From a virus (Duplodnaviria > Caudoviricetes): a DNA stretch of 35,856 nucleotides. The DNA lies in the IMG/VR virus record IMGVR_UViG_3300037789_000045, positions 1-35,856 of that record. The stretch is one strand, 5' to 3'. The first letter of the stretch is position 1. Each line of letters begins with the position of its first letter. This document shows, in pieces, positions 3,333 to 28,851 of the stretch. The translations under genes and the position numbers were made by a program. The notes under the pieces are model-generated. The model saw nothing but the letters and a program-made list of their open reading frames with translations, did no database searches and was not told the DNA's origin.

Positions 3333-3530
3333 ATGACTGATATTTTTTACTACTTATTTATTTTAGCTGTTTATTTTTTTCCTGCATACGCAGCCTTTAA
3401 AAGAAGGCATAAAAACTTTTTGCCAATATTTCTTTTAACTCTGTTTACAGCATGGACTCTTATCGGGTGGTTAGCTGCTCTTATATGGGCTTGTACAAGC
3501 AACACACATAAAGGCGAAAGCCCCGCATGA
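3333..3530 (+). CDS. imm: Superinfection immunity protein (T4 Imm-like)
   Basis: YFFP..AA..R.HKN...IFLL.LF.AWT.IGW..ALIWA signature. Confidence 0.85.
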   Translation: MTDIFYYLFILAVYFFPAYAAFKRRHKNFLPIFLLTLFTAWTLIGWLAALIWACTSNTHKGESPA

Positions 3531-9035: not shown

Positions 9036-11612
9036 TTAACAACACTCCGTAAACTGTTTTGACTTCATAATCTTTTCTTTATCCTCGCCATCAGCCGTAA
9101 CCTCTAAGCCCTCCTTACTTATAGGAAGGTTATCTGGATCGCCCTTTGTTTGCGCCCTTATCGTGCTTTTGCAATTGTGATGAAGGGGCGGCAAGAATGG
9201 GCTTTTGGCGTATTCCTCCTTAGAGAATACACGACCCGTTAAATGTTGACAAATAGGGCTTTTAGGATCTGGATTAACAAAGACAAAGGATTCAATATCG
9301 TCTAGCACATCAGGCGATTGAAAAAAATCATTGCGAACACCATTCACCGCATTAGAAACAGCATTGACTGCAGCCACGTCATATTTTGATTTATCAATCT
9401 CTTGCTCATGCATTCTTGAAAGTTCTTCAAGGGTATCATCAACAGACGCTTCGCTATCAAAGTTTTGATTTAGGAAAAAGTAAGAAATTTTTTCTATTTC
9501 TTCAAACTGCGTAGAAGCTAGCAAGGCGATTTGTGCGAGCAATCTTTGGCGGGTTTTTTTAGGTAAATCGTCTATATCTGCAAATTTTTTAGACGGGTTA
9601 ACCTCATTAGCCACGTCCTTTAGCGCCCTGTCTGAAAGGTCTATAAGAAAGTTCAGAAGATCCGCTTCATAATCCTTAGCGTTTGGCATTTTAATTTTAA
9701 GAACTTTACTTCTAGATTCACCACTCTCAAGCGAATCTTGAACATCAACTCTGAACCGTGAAGCGCTCTCAGTAAGTCCTTCACGCATAATTTTTGATAG
9801 ATTTTTTGCATTTTTACCAATGAATTCCCCTACCTTTTTATTTTTTTTTTCAGCCAGTGTAAGATTTTCCGAAAGTTTGGAATCAATTTCCTTAGACTTT
9901 CTCAAAGCCCAGTCAATGCCAGCGGTTCCACCCCATGCCAACCACATAAGATAGCCCTTGTCCTTCCAAGGTGTATTTTTAAACTCAGGATCAACGGCAG
10001 CATTTTTTCTATGACGGTTAAATGAGGCCATGCGCTTTACCGTTTTAGGGCTTAACTGCCCTCCATTAGCTATTTGTCGCGCCCTAGCCCATCCTACAGC
10101 AGTACCAGCTCCCTTTGTTTCTTTTGGGTACTGTTTCCGCCACCTTATAGCTTTCTTAGCATTTTCTATTGCTTGCTTAGGGGGTTTGAGGTTTATTGTC
10201 CCTTCATCAAAAAAAACGGAGTCAGGAAGAGCAGATAATTCTGCGTCCTCCTGATCGTCTTCTGCGGTGGGGTCATCCTCCGAATCTCCAGAGGCGGGAT
10301 TGTTAGGATCATCTTCGGACGGTGAGTCCTCTTCGTCCTGCTCTCTTTCCACATCAGGGAATTTATAGAGCTTGGATAAATGTCTTTCTAATCTCTCACC
10401 AGTACGAATAGCACCCGCTTCGACCAACATTTTAACAACCTCGGCAAGCTCTTTACCTGCCTTGTCATTAATACCAGCTGCATATGTTTTCGGATAAAAA
10501 TCACGATCACCATATTTAGCCCTGATGATCTTTCTCATAACTTTACGGTCAAGACATTCTGCAACCTCATCGGCAACAGTTTGAATTGACGACAAGAAAA
10601 TATCTGATAAATCAGACCCAAGGCTATAAGAGCCGCCACCCGTCAAGCCAAGCTCCATAAAGTTAGCCAAAAAGCTTTTTGTCATCTCAATGTTTTCACC
10701 ATCGATAGCCTTTTGAACCTTTTCGGGATCATGGGAAAGCTTAAGCTCAGAAACCTTGAACCCCTTCTCTAAGGCGATGTAATTTTGCTGATTCGCTGCA
10801 AAGCGTTGTAGCATCTTTTTAAATGCAGCCCATTGCGTCTCAAAATTCCCACCAGTCCTTATAGCGTCATCAATTTCCCCCATCGGAACGCCTGAAGAGG
10901 CTCTTTCTATTCCTACAGCTTGGAATTTTCTAAACAGCGTCTTTCTAAAGTGATTGCCATAAATTGAGCGCAAGGCAGATATACCTTGATAATTAGAGCC
11001 TTCTAATTCATTAGTGAGCACAAGCAAGTTCTTGGCGGGAATCTTAACATCAACGGCTATATCCCCTTGTGTCACTTGCCTGATGCAATCAAGAGAACCA
11101 TTACGCGCTAAGTGCCATTCATAAATTGTTTTAGGGCTTCTCCATGACAAATCGCTTAGGCCGATGTAATTACCAAACTTAGGATTATTCATAACAACCT
11201 TATGAACCACCTCAAAAACAGAATGCCCGAACTCAATCATGGTTAGGGCTTCACGCATAAATTGCCTAAAGGTTTTTTCTTTGGAACCGTCTTTATAGCC
11301 TATGTCATGAAATAAAACATGCTCTGCAAATGCCGCTATTTCTTTTTCTTCGTCGCTATCGTCTACAGGCTGGACACCCCAAGAGGCGGAAAGAATAGGG
11401 TTTTTAACCACACTTAGAAGCATTTTGACTTGCGCGTCTGATCGACGCATTTCGTCGTAAAGGTCAATTCCGTCTAAGTCACGAATCTTCTGAAGATACT
11501 CTTCATCATAGTAACCAGAAAAATTAGCTGTTCCTGTTGCTCCACGCTCTTTCGGGTGAAGGGATTCGCGCTCTTTAGGCTCGTTTTTAAAAAAATCTAG
11601 GAAGCTTACCAT
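9036..11612 (-). CDS. Portal (Mu gp29/DUF935-like) fused to an uncharacterised domain and a MuF domain
   Basis: LYDEMRRSD.QV, GHSVFE, G.SALR portal motifs; C-terminal SPIC..L.G.VF...PPLHHNCKS MuF motif. Confidence 0.88.
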   Translation of the reverse strand: MVSFLDFFKNEPKERESLHPKERGATGTANFSGYYDEEYLQKIRDLDGIDLYDEMRRSDAQVKMLLSVVKNPILSASWGVQPVDDSDEEKEIAAFAEHVLFHDIGYKDGSKEKTFRQFMREALTMIEFGHSVFEVVHKVVMNNPKFGNYIGLSDLSWRSPKTIYEWHLARNGSLDCIRQVTQGDIAVDVKIPAKNLLVLTNELEGSNYQGISALRSIYGNHFRKTLFRKFQAVGIERASSGVPMGEIDDAIRTGGNFETQWAAFKKMLQRFAANQQNYIALEKGFKVSELKLSHDPEKVQKAIDGENIEMTKSFLANFMELGLTGGGSYSLGSDLSDIFLSSIQTVADEVAECLDRKVMRKIIRAKYGDRDFYPKTYAAGINDKAGKELAEVVKMLVEAGAIRTGERLERHLSKLYKFPDVEREQDEEDSPSEDDPNNPASGDSEDDPTAEDDQEDAELSALPDSVFFDEGTINLKPPKQAIENAKKAIRWRKQYPKETKGAGTAVGWARARQIANGGQLSPKTVKRMASFNRHRKNAAVDPEFKNTPWKDKGYLMWLAWGGTAGIDWALRKSKEIDSKLSENLTLAEKKNKKVGEFIGKNAKNLSKIMREGLTESASRFRVDVQDSLESGESRSKVLKIKMPNAKDYEADLLNFLIDLSDRALKDVANEVNPSKKFADIDDLPKKTRQRLLAQIALLASTQFEEIEKISYFFLNQNFDSEASVDDTLEELSRMHEQEIDKSKYDVAAVNAVSNAVNGVRNDFFQSPDVLDDIESFVFVNPDPKSPICQHLTGRVFSKEEYAKSPFLPPLHHNCKSTIRAQTKGDPDNLPISKEGLEVTADGEDKEKIMKSKQFTECC

Positions 11613-23031: not shown

Positions 23032-23307
23032 ATGAAAATACTGATTTTAGCTTTTATATTGGTGCTTCTGCCAACAGCCTCTTATTCAAAAACAAAGGCC
23101 GAGCTACCAGCAAGTTTCTCAACAGCTCCGCAAGCTGTTATTGATTGGTACTTATGCCAAAAAACGGGGGAGCGTTGCATAGCATCGCAAAGCGCTAATA
23201 ATTGCTATATAGAAAGTATTCCTTGTGATGAGATGATAATTGAAAGCGATAATGAAAAAAAGGGCGACTCGCAAGCCACCCTTTTAAAAATCAAAAACAC
23301 CGAATAA
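23032..23307 (+). CDS. Small exported Cys-containing protein
   Basis: MKILILAFILVLLPTASYS signal-like N-terminus; four Cys. Confidence 0.55.
   Translation: MKILILAFILVLLPTASYSKTKAELPASFSTAPQAVIDWYLCQKTGERCIASQSANNCYIESIPCDEMIIESDNEKKGDSQATLLKIKNTE
23255..23285 (-). terminator. Terminator of the late lysis/spike operon
   Basis: GGGUGGCU-UGCG-AGUCGCCC-U7 on the minus strand. Confidence 0.8.
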
Positions 23308-23309
23308 TT

Positions 23310-23528
23310 TTATTCAGGTACGTTACTTAGCGTAATTGAGTCCGTCATAGGCTCAAAAGATGCCATTGTAAAAGATGATGAGTATACACCGAGGCGGGCA
23401 GGATCTGGGCTGGCGATAACCATGCCTTCACCAGCTTGCTTAAAGTATACATGTTCTTGTGTTGTGCCGTTATACTCAACACGAGGGTAAGCGTAAGTAG
23501 GGGGATTTACGGAAGCAGTTGTAGACAT
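23310..23528 (-). CDS. Hypothetical protein
   Basis: AAAGGAG RBS; last gene of late operon. Confidence 0.75.
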   Translation of the reverse strand: MSTTASVNPPTYAYPRVEYNGTTQEHVYFKQAGEGMVIASPDPARLGVYSSSFTMASFEPMTDSITLSNVPE

Positions 23529-23574: not shown

Positions 23575-26500
23575 CTAATTGCTCCAGGGGGTGTTATCAT
23601 TAGCGTATGTTCTTGCGGCAACCAAATCAGAATCTGAAATAGCTCTATCAATAATAGCCATTCCGTAAAGCCTTGCACCCGTTGCCCCTGTTGTTCCTGT
23701 GTCAGTGGCTAAGATACCAATATTAGAAGTGGCGTTATCTGTATTCGTTCCTATGGCAGTACCACTTGTGAAGCTTGTAGCGTTCATAGAATAGCTCAAG
23801 GCTGTACCACTCTGCTTAATAGCTATTAAGTAATCTGTGCTTGCACTCAACGCGCCCATATTTGTGTTCTTGAATGTACCCGCACCATCAGCAACACGCA
23901 CCTCCATATTGCCAGAAACAGACAAAATACGGAAATCAGGATCACCGCTTGCCGCGCTGTCAACATTCACATAGAACGCTGTTCCGATACTTGACGGCGT
24001 TCTAAGTGCGATAATGTATGTTACGTCTTGGTCTGAGCGTACAAGCCTATTCCATATCGTTGCAGTTGCGGCATCGTTTTTAGAAACCAAGTAATCACCC
24101 GCGTCAGTGGCTTCTATATATCCTGAACTTGTACCGCTTCCCGATATTGTAACATCATCAGAAGACCCGCTGTCGTTACCATTCCAGAAATCAAGGTTAG
24201 TGTCGCCGCTGTATTCCGCAATAGTCTGCGTTGTGTCATTCGCAACTGAATCCGTTAAGTGTACCCACCATTCAACAACACTATCGCCGCTAAACTCAGA
24301 TAGGCCAGCAAGTCCTGTAGCGCCAGCTGAAGCCGCTGCAATAGTTCCTGTAGCTGCACTTTCCGCTGTGGCAGCGCCTTCTGAGTTGGTTGCTGTAACA
24401 TCACAAGTTAGTGTGTCCCCCTCGTCGGTTGCATCGACAAGATAAGTTGAAGATGTAGCACCCGATATATCGACTCCCGTATTTTCCCATTGATATGTGT
24501 ATGTCGGAGTCGGGAATCCTGACCATGTACCAGTTGAGCAGGAAAGTGTCTCTCCAACCTGTTCAGTCCCAGAAATAACAGGAAGCACAGAGTTAACAGG
24601 GGCTGAGTTTTCAGGGTCAATAGTGCCTGTGGCTGCTGTCTCTGCTGTGGCAGAGCCTTCTGCATTTGTACCAGTCACTTCGCACGTAATAGTTTCGCCA
24701 ACATCAGCAGCCGCAAGAAGATATGTATTAGAAGTTGCGCCTGATATGTTCACCCCGCCGCGCTGCCATTGATACGTAATCGATGGTGCCGGGTATCCTG
24801 TCCATGTCCCGTCTGTAACAGAAAGGGTTTCGCCTTGCTGTTCTGTGCCAGATATAACGGGAAGAACAGTATTAACAGGTGCTACATATTCTTGCTCAAT
24901 AATGCCTGTGGCTGCGCTTTCCGCCTCAACAGCCCCCGCAATATTTGTTGCCGTTACAACGCAAGTAATAGTTTCGCCAACATCAGCAACAGCTAATAAA
25001 TATGTGCTGCTTGTTTCACCAGATATATCTACCCCTGACCGTTCCCATCCATAAGCATATGTTGGAGTCGGCGTTCCGCTCCATGTGCCAGTTGAGCAGG
25101 TGAGTGTTTCGCCTTGCCTTTCGGTTCCTGTTATCACAGGAAGAACTGAATTCGAAGGCGCTACCGTGGTAACTGTCTGTTGAATCGCTGTATTTTTTTG
25201 CAAAGGAAGATCATTCGCATCAGCCAAGATATTAGAAAGCGTTGCATTTCTAAATGTTGTGTTCATGGCATTGAGGGTAATAACCTCATTACCTACAAGC
25301 GTATATCCGTTTGTACGCGCTCTAATTCTATCATTAGATTTTTCTAATACAGCATAAGAAGCATTATAAAGTGTTCCATCAACATCAAATGTAAACATGT
25401 CAGTCTCAAGCGATGCAGCGTCTGCTTGAGAAATTGCGTTTCCATCGTCCAAGGTATAATTGACATAGATTTGATTGCTATCAATATCAAAAGTCATTGA
25501 GCTAACAGACGCGCCAACAGTGCCGCCTGTGCTTCGCTTACCTTCAAGAGCAGCGATTCTTTCGCCAACATCTGCCCAGTAGTCCCCCGCCCCATCGTCA
25601 TCTAGGTGAGTATCATCTCTGTATGATTTGTTAACGTAAGAGGGGATAAAGTAAGCCTCATTATCCGCTAGCAGTTCACTTTCAATCTGTCCGTATTCTC
25701 GATAGCCAGTAAATTCAGTTGAGTTTGTATCAGCACCAACAGGGCTGATACCTATCTTGGCATTACTAAAATCTGACTCAAGAATACCAAGGAATGCATT
25801 GTATGAAGTTTTAACCTCAGCCTTTGTAGAGCTTCCTGCATCAATGCCAGCCGCGTCTGTATTACCGATAACAATCGGAATAAAATCAATTTCAGAATTT
25901 ACTAACCCTGCCGCAGTAACATTCGTTGTTATTTGCGCCGTATAATCTGTGGATTTAGCATCGCTTGAATTCAGGTAAGAGCCAGCAGCCCCAGCATTAT
26001 CAGCATTAATAGAGATTCCAGCCTTAGCACCGTCAATAACTGTGAGCTTGCCGTAATATTCAAAGAGTGTTTCTTTTAATGTATCAATTCCGATAGTGGG
26101 ATCAGTCAAATTAACATCATTAAACATGTAATCGGCAACAGACTGACCGAGAACCAATATATTCAAATCAAGATCATCTGAAGCGCCGTATATTGTGCCA
26201 AAATCTGTAGCATCACCGCTAAAGCTTCCAAGGCTTACAATATGCCCTCCAGAAGTCCTATATCGGTCATAAGTAGACCCTGCTGATCGAGAATTTTGAA
26301 TCCAAACAATAGACGGGCTATTATCATTATAGGTTCCTGTTTGAAAATTAGAATCTCCTGAACTTGTGCCGTTACTGTTGTGAGCATAAATATCATAATT
26401 CCAAGACTTAGCCCCTAGAACATCGACCATATTCGGGCCATAGTTTGCGGTATATTCGCTGCCTACTCGAATACCTACAGCCTCATCATGTGCCGTACTT

Positions 26501-27585
26501 CCATTGTCGTTATTGTCCTGTGCATCCCATCCGTTGCGTGCCGCAAAGGTGCGTTCTTCGAAAAACTTAAGAACAGTGTTATGCGAGTTATCAATGGAAT
26601 AGCCAAAGCCATCGCTGTTATTGTCTGTTGAGCTACATTCCACGCAATAGGAATATGCAGCATCTCTAATGTCTAGTCCTGCCGTTGTGTCTGCGTATCT
26701 AAATGCGGATTTATAACCTACAAAAGTGCCGTCATTTGTACCAGAATAACTAAGTTTTACAGGTCTTCGCCCCCAAAACTCTATACCTTCCGCATAAAGG
26801 GTAATGTCGTTTGTTACATCAACATTATCAACAGCGAGCATGACATAAACATCTTCATCAGGCTCGCGTGAATCGTGTGTGTGAATGTATAAGGTTCCGC
26901 CTGTCTCATACCAAGATCCAGCATTGGCTTGTACATTTGCAATACTGCTTTCTTTATCGTAAGGAATCGGAACTTCTGTTGTCCCGTCTGTCAGATATTC
27001 GCCGCTGCGCGTGTGTGTACGATCAACAATGTTTGTAACATTGTTTCTTGTAGTGGAATAAACATTATCATTCGGAGAGCTTTGCTGAGTCCACGTGAAA
27101 TAATCCCCCAGCCTCCCCCTAAATATAATAACAGTTCCAGCCCCATCGGCGGCAACTAATGCCGTGTCTACCGTGGGATTATACCCATCAAATCCACTAA
27201 ACACTCCGTTGCCGTCATGATAAACACCGCTAACTAAATTAATTACAGCAGGGTTGTCTGCCTCAGCCGTTGGAATATCTGCATAGGCTTGCGCTCGGCT
27301 TGATCCATCGTTGGAATTATCGCCGTTAACTAAATCAACCCATCTTTCAGTCCCAGAGGGCTTTAATGTTGTGTGATCAAAGGAGGTTGTAGAATTACTA
27401 TATACGGTAATCCCTGAATCCCAGTATTCAGTGAATAAAGTAGGTTCTTCTACCTCAGCGCTGAATATACCGACATTGCTTGCTACTGAAGGGCTTACAG
27501 CATTACCAATAAGTTGAGCATCAGCCTGTAAAGCTGATGCCGCAAATATTAGTAATGATAATAAAAATGTCTTTATCGACCGCAT
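23575..27585 (-). CDS. Signal-peptide-bearing putative head fibre/depolymerase: beta-helix, SGNH esterase, 3 Ig-like repeats, LamG-like C-terminus
   Basis: MRSIKTFLLSLLIFAASALQADA|Q; DGF.Y/NGST.H beta-helix motifs; GQS, GNTD, DDTH SGNH blocks. Confidence 0.8.
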   Translation of the reverse strand: MRSIKTFLLSLLIFAASALQADAQLIGNAVSPSVASNVGIFSAEVEEPTLFTEYWDSGITVYSNSTTSFDHTTLKPSGTERWVDLVNGDNSNDGSSRAQAYADIPTAEADNPAVINLVSGVYHDGNGVFSGFDGYNPTVDTALVAADGAGTVIIFRGRLGDYFTWTQQSSPNDNVYSTTRNNVTNIVDRTHTRSGEYLTDGTTEVPIPYDKESSIANVQANAGSWYETGGTLYIHTHDSREPDEDVYVMLAVDNVDVTNDITLYAEGIEFWGRRPVKLSYSGTNDGTFVGYKSAFRYADTTAGLDIRDAAYSYCVECSSTDNNSDGFGYSIDNSHNTVLKFFEERTFAARNGWDAQDNNDNGSTAHDEAVGIRVGSEYTANYGPNMVDVLGAKSWNYDIYAHNSNGTSSGDSNFQTGTYNDNSPSIVWIQNSRSAGSTYDRYRTSGGHIVSLGSFSGDATDFGTIYGASDDLDLNILVLGQSVADYMFNDVNLTDPTIGIDTLKETLFEYYGKLTVIDGAKAGISINADNAGAAGSYLNSSDAKSTDYTAQITTNVTAAGLVNSEIDFIPIVIGNTDAAGIDAGSSTKAEVKTSYNAFLGILESDFSNAKIGISPVGADTNSTEFTGYREYGQIESELLADNEAYFIPSYVNKSYRDDTHLDDDGAGDYWADVGERIAALEGKRSTGGTVGASVSSMTFDIDSNQIYVNYTLDDGNAISQADAASLETDMFTFDVDGTLYNASYAVLEKSNDRIRARTNGYTLVGNEVITLNAMNTTFRNATLSNILADANDLPLQKNTAIQQTVTTVAPSNSVLPVITGTERQGETLTCSTGTWSGTPTPTYAYGWERSGVDISGETSSTYLLAVADVGETITCVVTATNIAGAVEAESAATGIIEQEYVAPVNTVLPVISGTEQQGETLSVTDGTWTGYPAPSITYQWQRGGVNISGATSNTYLLAAADVGETITCEVTGTNAEGSATAETAATGTIDPENSAPVNSVLPVISGTEQVGETLSCSTGTWSGFPTPTYTYQWENTGVDISGATSSTYLVDATDEGDTLTCDVTATNSEGAATAESAATGTIAAASAGATGLAGLSEFSGDSVVEWWVHLTDSVANDTTQTIAEYSGDTNLDFWNGNDSGSSDDVTISGSGTSSGYIEATDAGDYLVSKNDAATATIWNRLVRSDQDVTYIIALRTPSSIGTAFYVNVDSAASGDPDFRILSVSGNMEVRVADGAGTFKNTNMGALSASTDYLIAIKQSGTALSYSMNATSFTSGTAIGTNTDNATSNIGILATDTGTTGATGARLYGMAIIDRAISDSDLVAARTYANDNTPWSN
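24325..25161 (-). repeat. Three tandem 279-bp (93-aa) Ig-like repeats
   Basis: AP.N.VLPVI.GT...GETL...GTW.G.P.P...Y.W starts at 25161, 24882, 24603. Confidence 0.92.
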
Positions 27586-27917
27586 ACTATTGTAGCTGTT
27601 GTTGAAGTGTTAACTTTTGAAATCATAGCAGGAATCAACTGACCTGCTATAACTGTGATTGTGACACTTGAAGCATTCTTAATAGGGGTAATTGTTAAAT
27701 CACCAGCAGTTTCAACAATACACCCACGCAAAGGAGGATCATATGTCGTTACATCAGAAGCGGTAATTTGCAGCACCTCTTCAAAGGGTGCGTATGCGTC
27801 ACGAGTATTTGTGGCGCTCTTGGTTTGCTGTGCATAAGCCTTTTCAAAAGGCGCGACAAGCAAAAAGGCCACTAGAAGTCCTAGAAAATTAGATGCTAAA
27901 AAACTTGGTAAATTCAT
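27573..27917 (-). CDS. Head-spike base protein (RcGTA Rcc01079-like) with signal peptide
   Basis: IT.SD...RG..V..AGDL.I...VT..V.AG..IP....V...TA.IV pattern; GAGG RBS; AYA|Q site. Confidence 0.78.
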   Translation of the reverse strand: MNLPSFLASNFLGLLVAFLLVAPFEKAYAQQTKSATNTRDAYAPFEEVLQITASDVTTYDPPLRGCIVETAGDLTITPIKNASSVTITVIAGQLIPAMISKVNTSTTATIVCGR

Positions 27918-27930
27918 AATATCCTCTTTC

Positions 27931-28197
27931 TTATGGCAATTTTTCATTGCGGGCAATTCGGTTTTTATCTCTCAGCTTTTTATAGCCTACCATCATTTTT
28001 TCCAAAACTGAACAGCCATTGCAATTATAATAGCTATCAAGAATGTCTAACTCATCGGCGGCAACGGATTGCTCATTTTCCGTATACCCTATGGGCTTTG
28101 CAACTGTTAGCTTTTTTGTCGGTGCGTCAAAGTCTGCCTTTGCGCAAGATACCGTTCCTAAAGCTATCAGGATCATAAGAAATCGAGTCCACTTCAT
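27931..28197 (-). CDS. o-spanin (Rz1-like lipoprotein)
   Basis: MKWTRFLMILIALGTVS|C lipobox; overlaps the i-spanin 3' end. Confidence 0.75.
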   Translation of the reverse strand: MKWTRFLMILIALGTVSCAKADFDAPTKKLTVAKPIGYTENEQSVAADELDILDSYYNCNGCSVLEKMMVGYKKLRDKNRIARNEKLP

Positions 28198-28435
28198 CCT
28201 GCTTCTCTCTTATATTAACATCTCTTTCGATAACCTTCATATTGGCAGAGGTTTGTAGAATTTTTTGTAACTTCCAACCACTATAAAACCCGCCAAACAA
28301 GCACATAACAGCTATAGCCACCATCGCATAAAGCATAAATCTGTTGCGAAAAACAAACTTAGCTACTTTAGCGTAATTGAATATTTGAAATATCATTGTA
28401 GACCCAAAAATATTTATTAAGAGCCGTTCCACCAA
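28127..28435 (-). CDS. i-spanin (Rz-like; true start probably 28396 or later)
   Basis: Single TM followed by helical region, after endolysin. Confidence 0.7.
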   Translation of the reverse strand: MVERLLINIFGSTMIFQIFNYAKVAKFVFRNRFMLYAMVAIAVMCLFGGFYSGWKLQKILQTSANMKVIERDVNIREKQDEVDSISYDPDSFRNGILRKGRL

Positions 28436-28851
28436 GACGACACATCAAAGCAAGGGCAAGCTTTATAACGATCCTTATCCCTATGTCCAAGAACTTCAGC
28501 TTGCGGAAATTCAGCCTTTAACTGCCCTATAAGAGCCTCTAGTGACTTCATTTGCTCTTTTGTATAATTAAAGTCAGGCCTTCCAACCCAATCAACACCA
28601 CCAACCAAGCAAACGCCAAGAGAAACAGAATTAAGCCCTCGAACATGAGCGCCTGTTTCCTCCATAAAATCACCATCTTGATCTAAATCTCTTCCGCCTT
28701 CTACTGTGCCATTCCTGCGTATAACATAATTGTAGCCTATATCTTTCCATCCTCGCCTTAAGTGCCACTCCCTAATTTCGCAAGCCCCTATATCAAGGTT
28801 TGGCTTAGTTGCCGAGCAATGAACAAAGATATAATCAGTACGGCTTCTCAT
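28417..28851 (-). CDS. Endolysin, T7 gp3.5-like N-acetylmuramoyl-L-alanine amidase
   Basis: VHCSAT, WH..RGW.DIGY, GAHV.G.N, GHRD, KACP.F. Confidence 0.95.
   Translation of the reverse strand: MRSRTDYIFVHCSATKPNLDIGACEIREWHLRRGWKDIGYNYVIRRNGTVEGGRDLDQDGDFMEETGAHVRGLNSVSLGVCLVGGVDWVGRPDFNYTKEQMKSLEALIGQLKAEFPQAEVLGHRDKDRYKACPCFDVSSWWNGS

Follow-up and report, generated by a model that had tools for sequence, protein, structure and literature searches.

The closest described relative of the system considered here is the head spike of the gene transfer agent RcGTA, made up of a pentamer of the base protein Rcc01079 and the fibre Rcc01080 (PDB 6tb9). It is described that the base attaches to the capsid through its N-terminus, while residues 2 to 10 of the fibre bind the base pentamer (PMC7296036), and the spike is described as binding capsule polysaccharide (PMC10218006). 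The methods of one study of this spike name SignalP, and no signal is reported in the sections consulted (PMC5026251). Here we examine a base and fibre pair in IMGVR_UViG_3300037789_000045, a complete tailed-phage record of 35,856 nucleotides (nt; 35.9 kb) with a 127-nt terminal repeat; "the window" below means this whole stretch. Both predicted products begin with a signal-like segment, in contrast to the cytoplasmic, signal-free synthesis of RcGTA-type spikes, and a signal-bearing base and fibre would be new relative to that type. Conservation of the segment, signal-less sister proteins and a cysteine pair in the base make it very probable that both spike parts are exported.

Virion proteins are found on the Sec route in filamentous phages, whose coat proteins carry Sec signals. 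Filamentous virions are put together at the membrane and leave by secretion, whereas the heads of tailed phages are built in the cytoplasm. A published census gives signal peptides in <5% of viral membrane proteins (PMC4641393). Our literature search found no paper that describes head spikes with signals in tailed phages, most subscription papers and supplements lying outside its scope.

Signal-like segments on the spike base and fibre

The two genes overlap and lie on the minus strand directly behind the spanin candidates, as a preliminary description of this DNA had held: the open reading frames (ORFs) share 13 nt, and the pair begins 13 nt behind a lipoprotein (lipobox) gene at 27931-28197. 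Sequence comparison confirms the smaller product, previously matched by eye, as an Rcc01079-family head-spike base. It scores 41.3 bits against NCBIfam NF048002 (cut-off 28), and PDB 6tb9 (Rcc01079) and 8cjz, at E ~2e-4, are its sole PDB matches below E 0.1, as expected for the ~85-residue jelly-roll domain of this family. In 8cjz a base of the same family sits on a phage capsid, with a 92-residue chain that is close to the mature length predicted for the window base. We take this phage to be Cobetia phage Carin-1. Because residues 44-111 of the window base align to residues 14-81 of Rcc01079, Q30 corresponds roughly to the first of the 84 residues of the RcGTA protein, and cleavage there would leave 85 residues. 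The likeness extends to gene order, the base gene being directly followed by a fibre gene with a body of sugar-binding type and a candidate plug-like segment at its N-terminus. The window differs from RcGTA in the signal-like segments on both parts, in the Cys66/Cys112 pair of its base, in a Mu-like rather than GTA head, and in a fibre that is four times longer (1336 versus 325 residues) with domains that are unrelated as far as compared.

Both products open with a hydrophobic segment and a putative cleavage site where these had been placed before (AYA/QQ at Q30 of the base and ADA/QL at Q24 of the fibre, the slash marking the cut). Signals were flagged by a simple in-house rule together with alignment columns, and the rule picks out 4 of the 46 window ORFs, namely the base, the fibre, the lipobox gene and a 91-residue gene. 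By the rule and the columns, the segments have the n-, h- and c-regions with small residues at -3 and -1 that are typical of Sec and signal peptidase I substrates, and the sequence contains no twin-arginine motif.

Close homologues of the base, 51 from 57 candidates with the window protein counted, were collected with a query that contained the segment, so that the set leans to signal-bearing forms. All 51 are flagged, each combining a hydrophobic core with small residues in the -3 and -1 columns. The -1 column holds Ala in 45, Ser in 4 and Gly in 2, and the -3 column holds Ala in 35, Ser in 9, Gly in 5 and Val in 2. Mean pairwise identity is 25% in the segment versus 67% in the mature part, and a Met lies near the predicted cut in a single homologue. 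A profile of the mature part only gave 385 matches, and the best 150, after two long repeat proteins were dropped, provide the 148 representatives used below. Three of the five closest single-domain matches among them (P0071, P0073 and P0075, 85-87 residues) have no signal segment, and their N-termini lie at the predicted cut. Only 7 of the 148 are flagged, and by eye two of these flags (P0119 and P0136) seem false; the base family is therefore mostly without a signal. Judged from these alignments, the signal-like segment of the base is beyond chance.

The base cysteine pair and the related loci

A feature missed in the preliminary description is a pair of cysteines in the base, Cys66 and Cys112, putative partners in a disulfide. 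In the alignments the pair tracks the signal and so supports export. Cys occupies the Cys66 column in 4 of the 7 flagged versus 0 of the 141 unflagged representatives (Fisher p 2e-6, uncorrected for kinship), and the signal-less sisters P0071, P0073 and P0075 carry Leu and Gly at the two positions. P0137 and P0191, which are remote on the best tree, combine a signal with Cys at the Cys66 column and a Cys third from the end, placed by MAFFT one column off Cys112. In P0219 there is a signal but no pair, and in P0127 the second Cys only. The best tree of signal and pair needs 3 changes. Covariation of the two may be one event, because a single clade is not rejected by the approximately unbiased test (p-AU 0.124). 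A repeated origin was considered and dropped, given this value and 1 independent pair on the starred branches.

In each of five related loci (L001-L005) the base sits among 2 to 6 neighbouring genes. These cassettes were chosen after inspection of the loci and exclude a gene truncated by a contig end and a holin-like gene behind the base in L005; 46 head and tail genes served as controls, one of which was given out of frame, leaving 45. A survey of homologues for co-occurring signals had been proposed earlier; here 20 of 20 cassette genes are flagged, versus 0 of the 45 controls. The gene that follows the base in L001, L002 and L004 encodes a signal and a 46-48-residue peptide, and signal-bearing fibre genes follow. 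Behind the signal, the peptides start with GIGPGIGIF, GIGSGLSIF or FVGIGSSP, plug-like sequences that resemble the plug at residues 2-10 of Rcc01080, in which Leu and Gly alternate. The corresponding gene in L003 encodes a signal, a plug close to that of the window and a LamG-like domain.

The tiny signal-plus-plug genes (L001 8273-8479, L002 8348-8551, L004 962-1180) end in W-x-D/G-x repeats and probably serve as adaptors that join the base to a separate fibre. In relatives, the base is also preceded by a signal-bearing protein of 210-300 residues with a conserved K-S/T-x-A-x-L-Q start, which is absent from the window (Table 1). It has no family match, its 298-residue L001 version has no match among cultured phages, and it could represent another exported decoration of the head.

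Cultured phages provide signal-less counterparts. The mature window base found no real match among them, and a search with P0137 gave 11 records, from which the 5 distinct phages examined all have signal-less bases. RcapNL, P8625 and vB_FspM_immuto resemble the window in having a base and then a fibre, which starts with a GLG plug; unlike the window pair, theirs have no signal and no Cys pair at the two positions. The order in RcapNL is that of the window, with lysis genes, base, fibre and then a regulator on the other strand. Location behind the lysis genes had been offered as support for export, and we set it aside since the signal-less bases of RcapNL and RSJ5 sit likewise. The RSJ5 gene, behind the Rz gene at ~43150-43380 of AB983711.1 (L026), is unannotated. 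No genome context was found for P0073 or P0137.

The base and fibre module appears to be accessory, since a related 95%-complete record has spanin-like genes that directly adjoin the LexA-like gene, with no base. None of the 5 records searched has a base, although four of these are fragments. A capsid protein 45% identical to that of the window occurs in 1 of 2 records searched.

Fibre domains and gene neighbourhood

By its domain matches the large gene is a mosaic fibre (Table 1), and the beta-helix, the three immunoglobulin (Ig)-like repeats, two with a Cys pair, and the lectin-like end described earlier were all recovered. AlphaFold2 (AF2) folds residues 24-479 as a beta-helix (pLDDT 89), and Foldseek relates this part to glycoside hydrolases and tailspikes (best E 6e-7); because TM-scores reach only 0.48, no enzyme family can be named for it. 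Of the 14 shorter fibre homologues, two (P0057 and P0058) have a GLG-type plug at their start (GLGLG-type in P0057), and P0062 has a signal there. A complete SGNH motif set had also been claimed, and the four motifs do stand in order at residues 480, 519, 574 and 657. The domain itself found no profile match: Pfam, NCBIfam and PDB gave none, PHROGs gave one chance-level match (E 0.03), and searches of phages, plasmids and the related loci gave none. A single-sequence AF2 model of residues 472-810 (pLDDT 31) was not used. With the motifs and the ESM lead, the SGNH domain is an unconfirmed candidate.

The Ig-like repeats are closest to those of gp47, a Hoc-like Ig capsid decoration of Stenotrophomonas phage Moby, which, unlike the window fibre, has no signal and no cysteine. 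The Cys pairs in two of the repeats (C830/C875 and C1016/C1061) had been taken as a sign of oxidative folding. We set them aside as evidence of export, since 1 of 16 Ig repeats from signal-less phage proteins shows such a pair as well, and the cysteines of the fibre are odd in number (7). The LamG-like end aligns at 18-23% with signal-bearing LamG-like proteins of L001-L003.

Elsewhere the window encodes a terminase, Mu-type portal, protease, major capsid protein, neck, tape measure and tail proteins, together with an amidase, RecT, an exonuclease and a LexA-like repressor. A GapR-like gene, whose family was matched in 1 of 14 control genomes (Caulobacter), suggests an alphaproteobacterial host; a pattern scan for base relatives in 185,579 species genomes found none, and thus no host or prophage. 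The minus-strand late run is made up of tail genes, lysis genes, base, fibre, a 72-residue gene and a 12-pair hairpin, and promoter-like sites in the region are at chance (15 versus 16.7 expected). Spanin labels follow from the lipobox and gene order, with no profile match. The fibre ATG lies 13 nt upstream of the base/fibre junction (27573-27585), within the last codons of the base. The junction reads TAAAG, versus TAATG in L001-L003. Contigs of a second run, X3, span it with the same letters as the window, and runs X2, which may be the source of the record, and X3 show zero differences over the parts covered, the junction included.

Some further genes deserve mention. The 858-residue portal (9036-11612, minus strand) has fused extras, a phrog_2859-like stretch (476-569) and a head-morphogenesis-like end (784-840). 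A superinfection immunity protein (PF14373) is encoded at 3333-3530 on the plus strand, opposite to the tail genes. Behind the LexA-like repressor, the 91-residue gene (23032-23307, plus strand) has a signal-like start and four cysteines, without a match in Pfam, PHROG or NCBIfam; its product is perhaps a small periplasmic protein for exclusion or lysis control.

Table 1. Features of the predicted spike module, its surroundings and a neighbouring protein of related loci (window positions unless a locus is named; aa, amino acids).
Feature	Position	Strand	Basis
Head-spike base, Rcc01079 family, 114 aa, with N-terminal signal-like segment	27573..27917	-	NF048002; PDB 6tb9/8cjz
Predicted base signal peptide, residues 1-29, cleavage AYA/Q (Q30)	27831..27917	-	Homologue columns; signal-less sisters
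Cys66 of base, first partner of putative disulfide	27720..27722	-	Invariant, 51/51
Cys112 of base, second partner of putative disulfide	27582..27584	-	Invariant, 51/51; Gly in P0071, P0073, P0075
Giant head-spike fibre candidate, 1336 aa	23575..27585	-	Profile, structure and language-model matches
Predicted fibre signal peptide, residues 1-23, cleavage ADA/Q (Q24)	27517..27585	-	Signal rule; no later start
Candidate plug, mature N-terminus LIGNAVSP, would bind base pentamer	27466..27516	-	Putative; near match in L003
Parallel beta-helix, polysaccharide-binding or degrading type	26176..27465	-	phrog_16653 E 7e-35; AF2; Foldseek
SGNH/SASA-like esterase candidate	25486..26172	-	Motifs in order; ESM look-alikes SASA 0.85, lead only
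Three Ig-like repeats	24331..25161	-	~50% identical to Hoc-like protein of phage Moby
LamG/concanavalin-like terminal domain	23578..24318	-	ESM 0.98; alignment to L001-L003 proteins
Lysis genes upstream: amidase endolysin, i-spanin and o-spanin candidates	27931..28851	-	Amidase_2; lipobox and overlap
72-aa gene, last of late run, without signal	23310..23528	-	phrog_34898 E 0.004; strong ribosome site
Terminator-like hairpin, 12 pairs, closing late gene run	23258..23285	-	
Signal-bearing pre-base protein, 210-300 aa	L001 6977-7873; L002 7067-7951; L003 1076-1711; L005 8649-9545		

Proposed assembly at lysis and its alternatives

The reading that we favour, and consider moderately probable, is an RcGTA-type head spike whose parts are exported by Sec to the periplasm and dock on finished heads at or after lysis. 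Computed from the sequences are the membership of the base in its family, the conservation of the segments and the Cys pair that goes with them, along with the fibre domains and the position in the late run; beyond the conserved signal-like segments, we infer each step. Base and fibre would be co-expressed late with the lysis genes, both chains would pass through Sec, and signal peptidase I would then cleave them to give the mature base and a freed N-terminal fibre plug. Cleavage would be needed, since the N-termini are the binding ends of both parts in RcGTA. In the periplasm, the Cys66-Cys112 disulfide would form and five bases would assemble on one fibre plug. Holin, amidase and spanin action would mix periplasm and cytoplasm, and the base arms would then bind capsid pentons. 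On the virion, the fibre would serve in reversible attachment to, and possibly loosening of, the surface polysaccharide of the next host. Docking at lysis would fit the kept length of the capsid arm and the plug motifs: the N-terminal, capsid-facing arm is strongly conserved across the 51 homologues, and its length and conservation fit an RcGTA-type penton-binding arm. Dec of phage L is described as able to bind finished capsids in vitro (PMC7602432). Export followed by docking on heads had been proposed in the preliminary description, and its first half has stood up on conservation, the signal-less sisters and the Cys pair, while the docking is what we infer.

Several points weigh against this reading. 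The signal of the window base is long and its n-region is without positive charge. The fibre, which begins within the last base codons where relatives have TAATG, lacks a separate ribosome site, and its plug is less regular than those of relatives. The L005 base has no fibre gene behind it, the signal-bearing form is absent from the 5 cultured phages examined, a single origin of signal and Cys pair is not rejected, and the flags come from the in-house rule and columns, not SignalP. Virion disulfides are also described in the ordinary, cytoplasm-built phages 7-7-1 (PMC12796354) and Milano (PMC10811340).

Export separates the spike parts from the heads, as it would if the spike were cleaved and then acted off the virion, with free spikes loosening capsule or biofilm at lysis, serving as decoys, or blocking superinfection from the envelope of the infected cell. 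The glycoside hydrolase- and tailspike-like beta-helix, the SGNH-like motifs and the presence of the superinfection immunity gene and the LexA-like repressor are in keeping with such a role. The base partner in some relatives is, however, a 46-48-residue plug peptide with no enzyme domain, and the earlier suggestion of action on the capsule from inside does not account for these either. The capsid-facing arm of the base is highly conserved, no integrase was found among the window ORFs scanned, and there is no promoter excess. Taken together, we regard a role off the virion as rather unlikely. It is still less probable that the segments, cleaved slowly or not at all, serve as anchors that keep the spike parts in the inner membrane until lysis sets them free, to control timing and not to allow folding in the periplasm. 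Phages use anchor release for lysis proteins, and the long, uncharged segment of the window base would suit an anchor. Small residues at -1 and -3 in every homologue and the Cys pair that tracks the segment argue for cleavage instead, and an uncleaved segment would cover the N-termini that bind in RcGTA.

A downstream translation start or over-called genes would leave the segments unused and the spike an ordinary cytoplasmic one, and GTG and TTG at codons 16 and 19 of the base, as well as the missing ribosome site of the fibre, could be read in this way. The preliminary description had itself pointed to such starts as a difficulty for export. Around the cut, neither the window nor L002-L005 offers a start codon (in L001, codon 33 is TTG), and strong ribosome sites stand before the first ATG, with AGAGGA preceding the window base gene. 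Fibre codons 2-120 contain no further ATG, GTG or TTG, and its signal is therefore not skippable by a standard later start. With every cassette gene flagged and no control, unused segments are very improbable.

Returning to periplasmic maturation and docking at lysis, tailed-phage particles are usually regarded as complete in the cytoplasm before lysis, and a spike matured in the periplasm would add a post-lysis assembly step. We see about even chances that some tailed phages split assembly in this way, with heads and tails made in the cytoplasm, vertex spikes and fibres cleaved and disulfide-locked in the periplasm, and lysis as the final step; the signal would lock the binding N-termini until then, and cassettes of up to six appendage genes would have been switched to this route, perhaps more than once. 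The lineage offers a clean test pair, signal-bearing bases with the Cys pair versus near relatives with neither. A periplasmic spike would account for disulfide-bonded or otherwise export-dependent phage appendages, and, if it is true, secreted "hypothetical" phage proteins may be virion parts.

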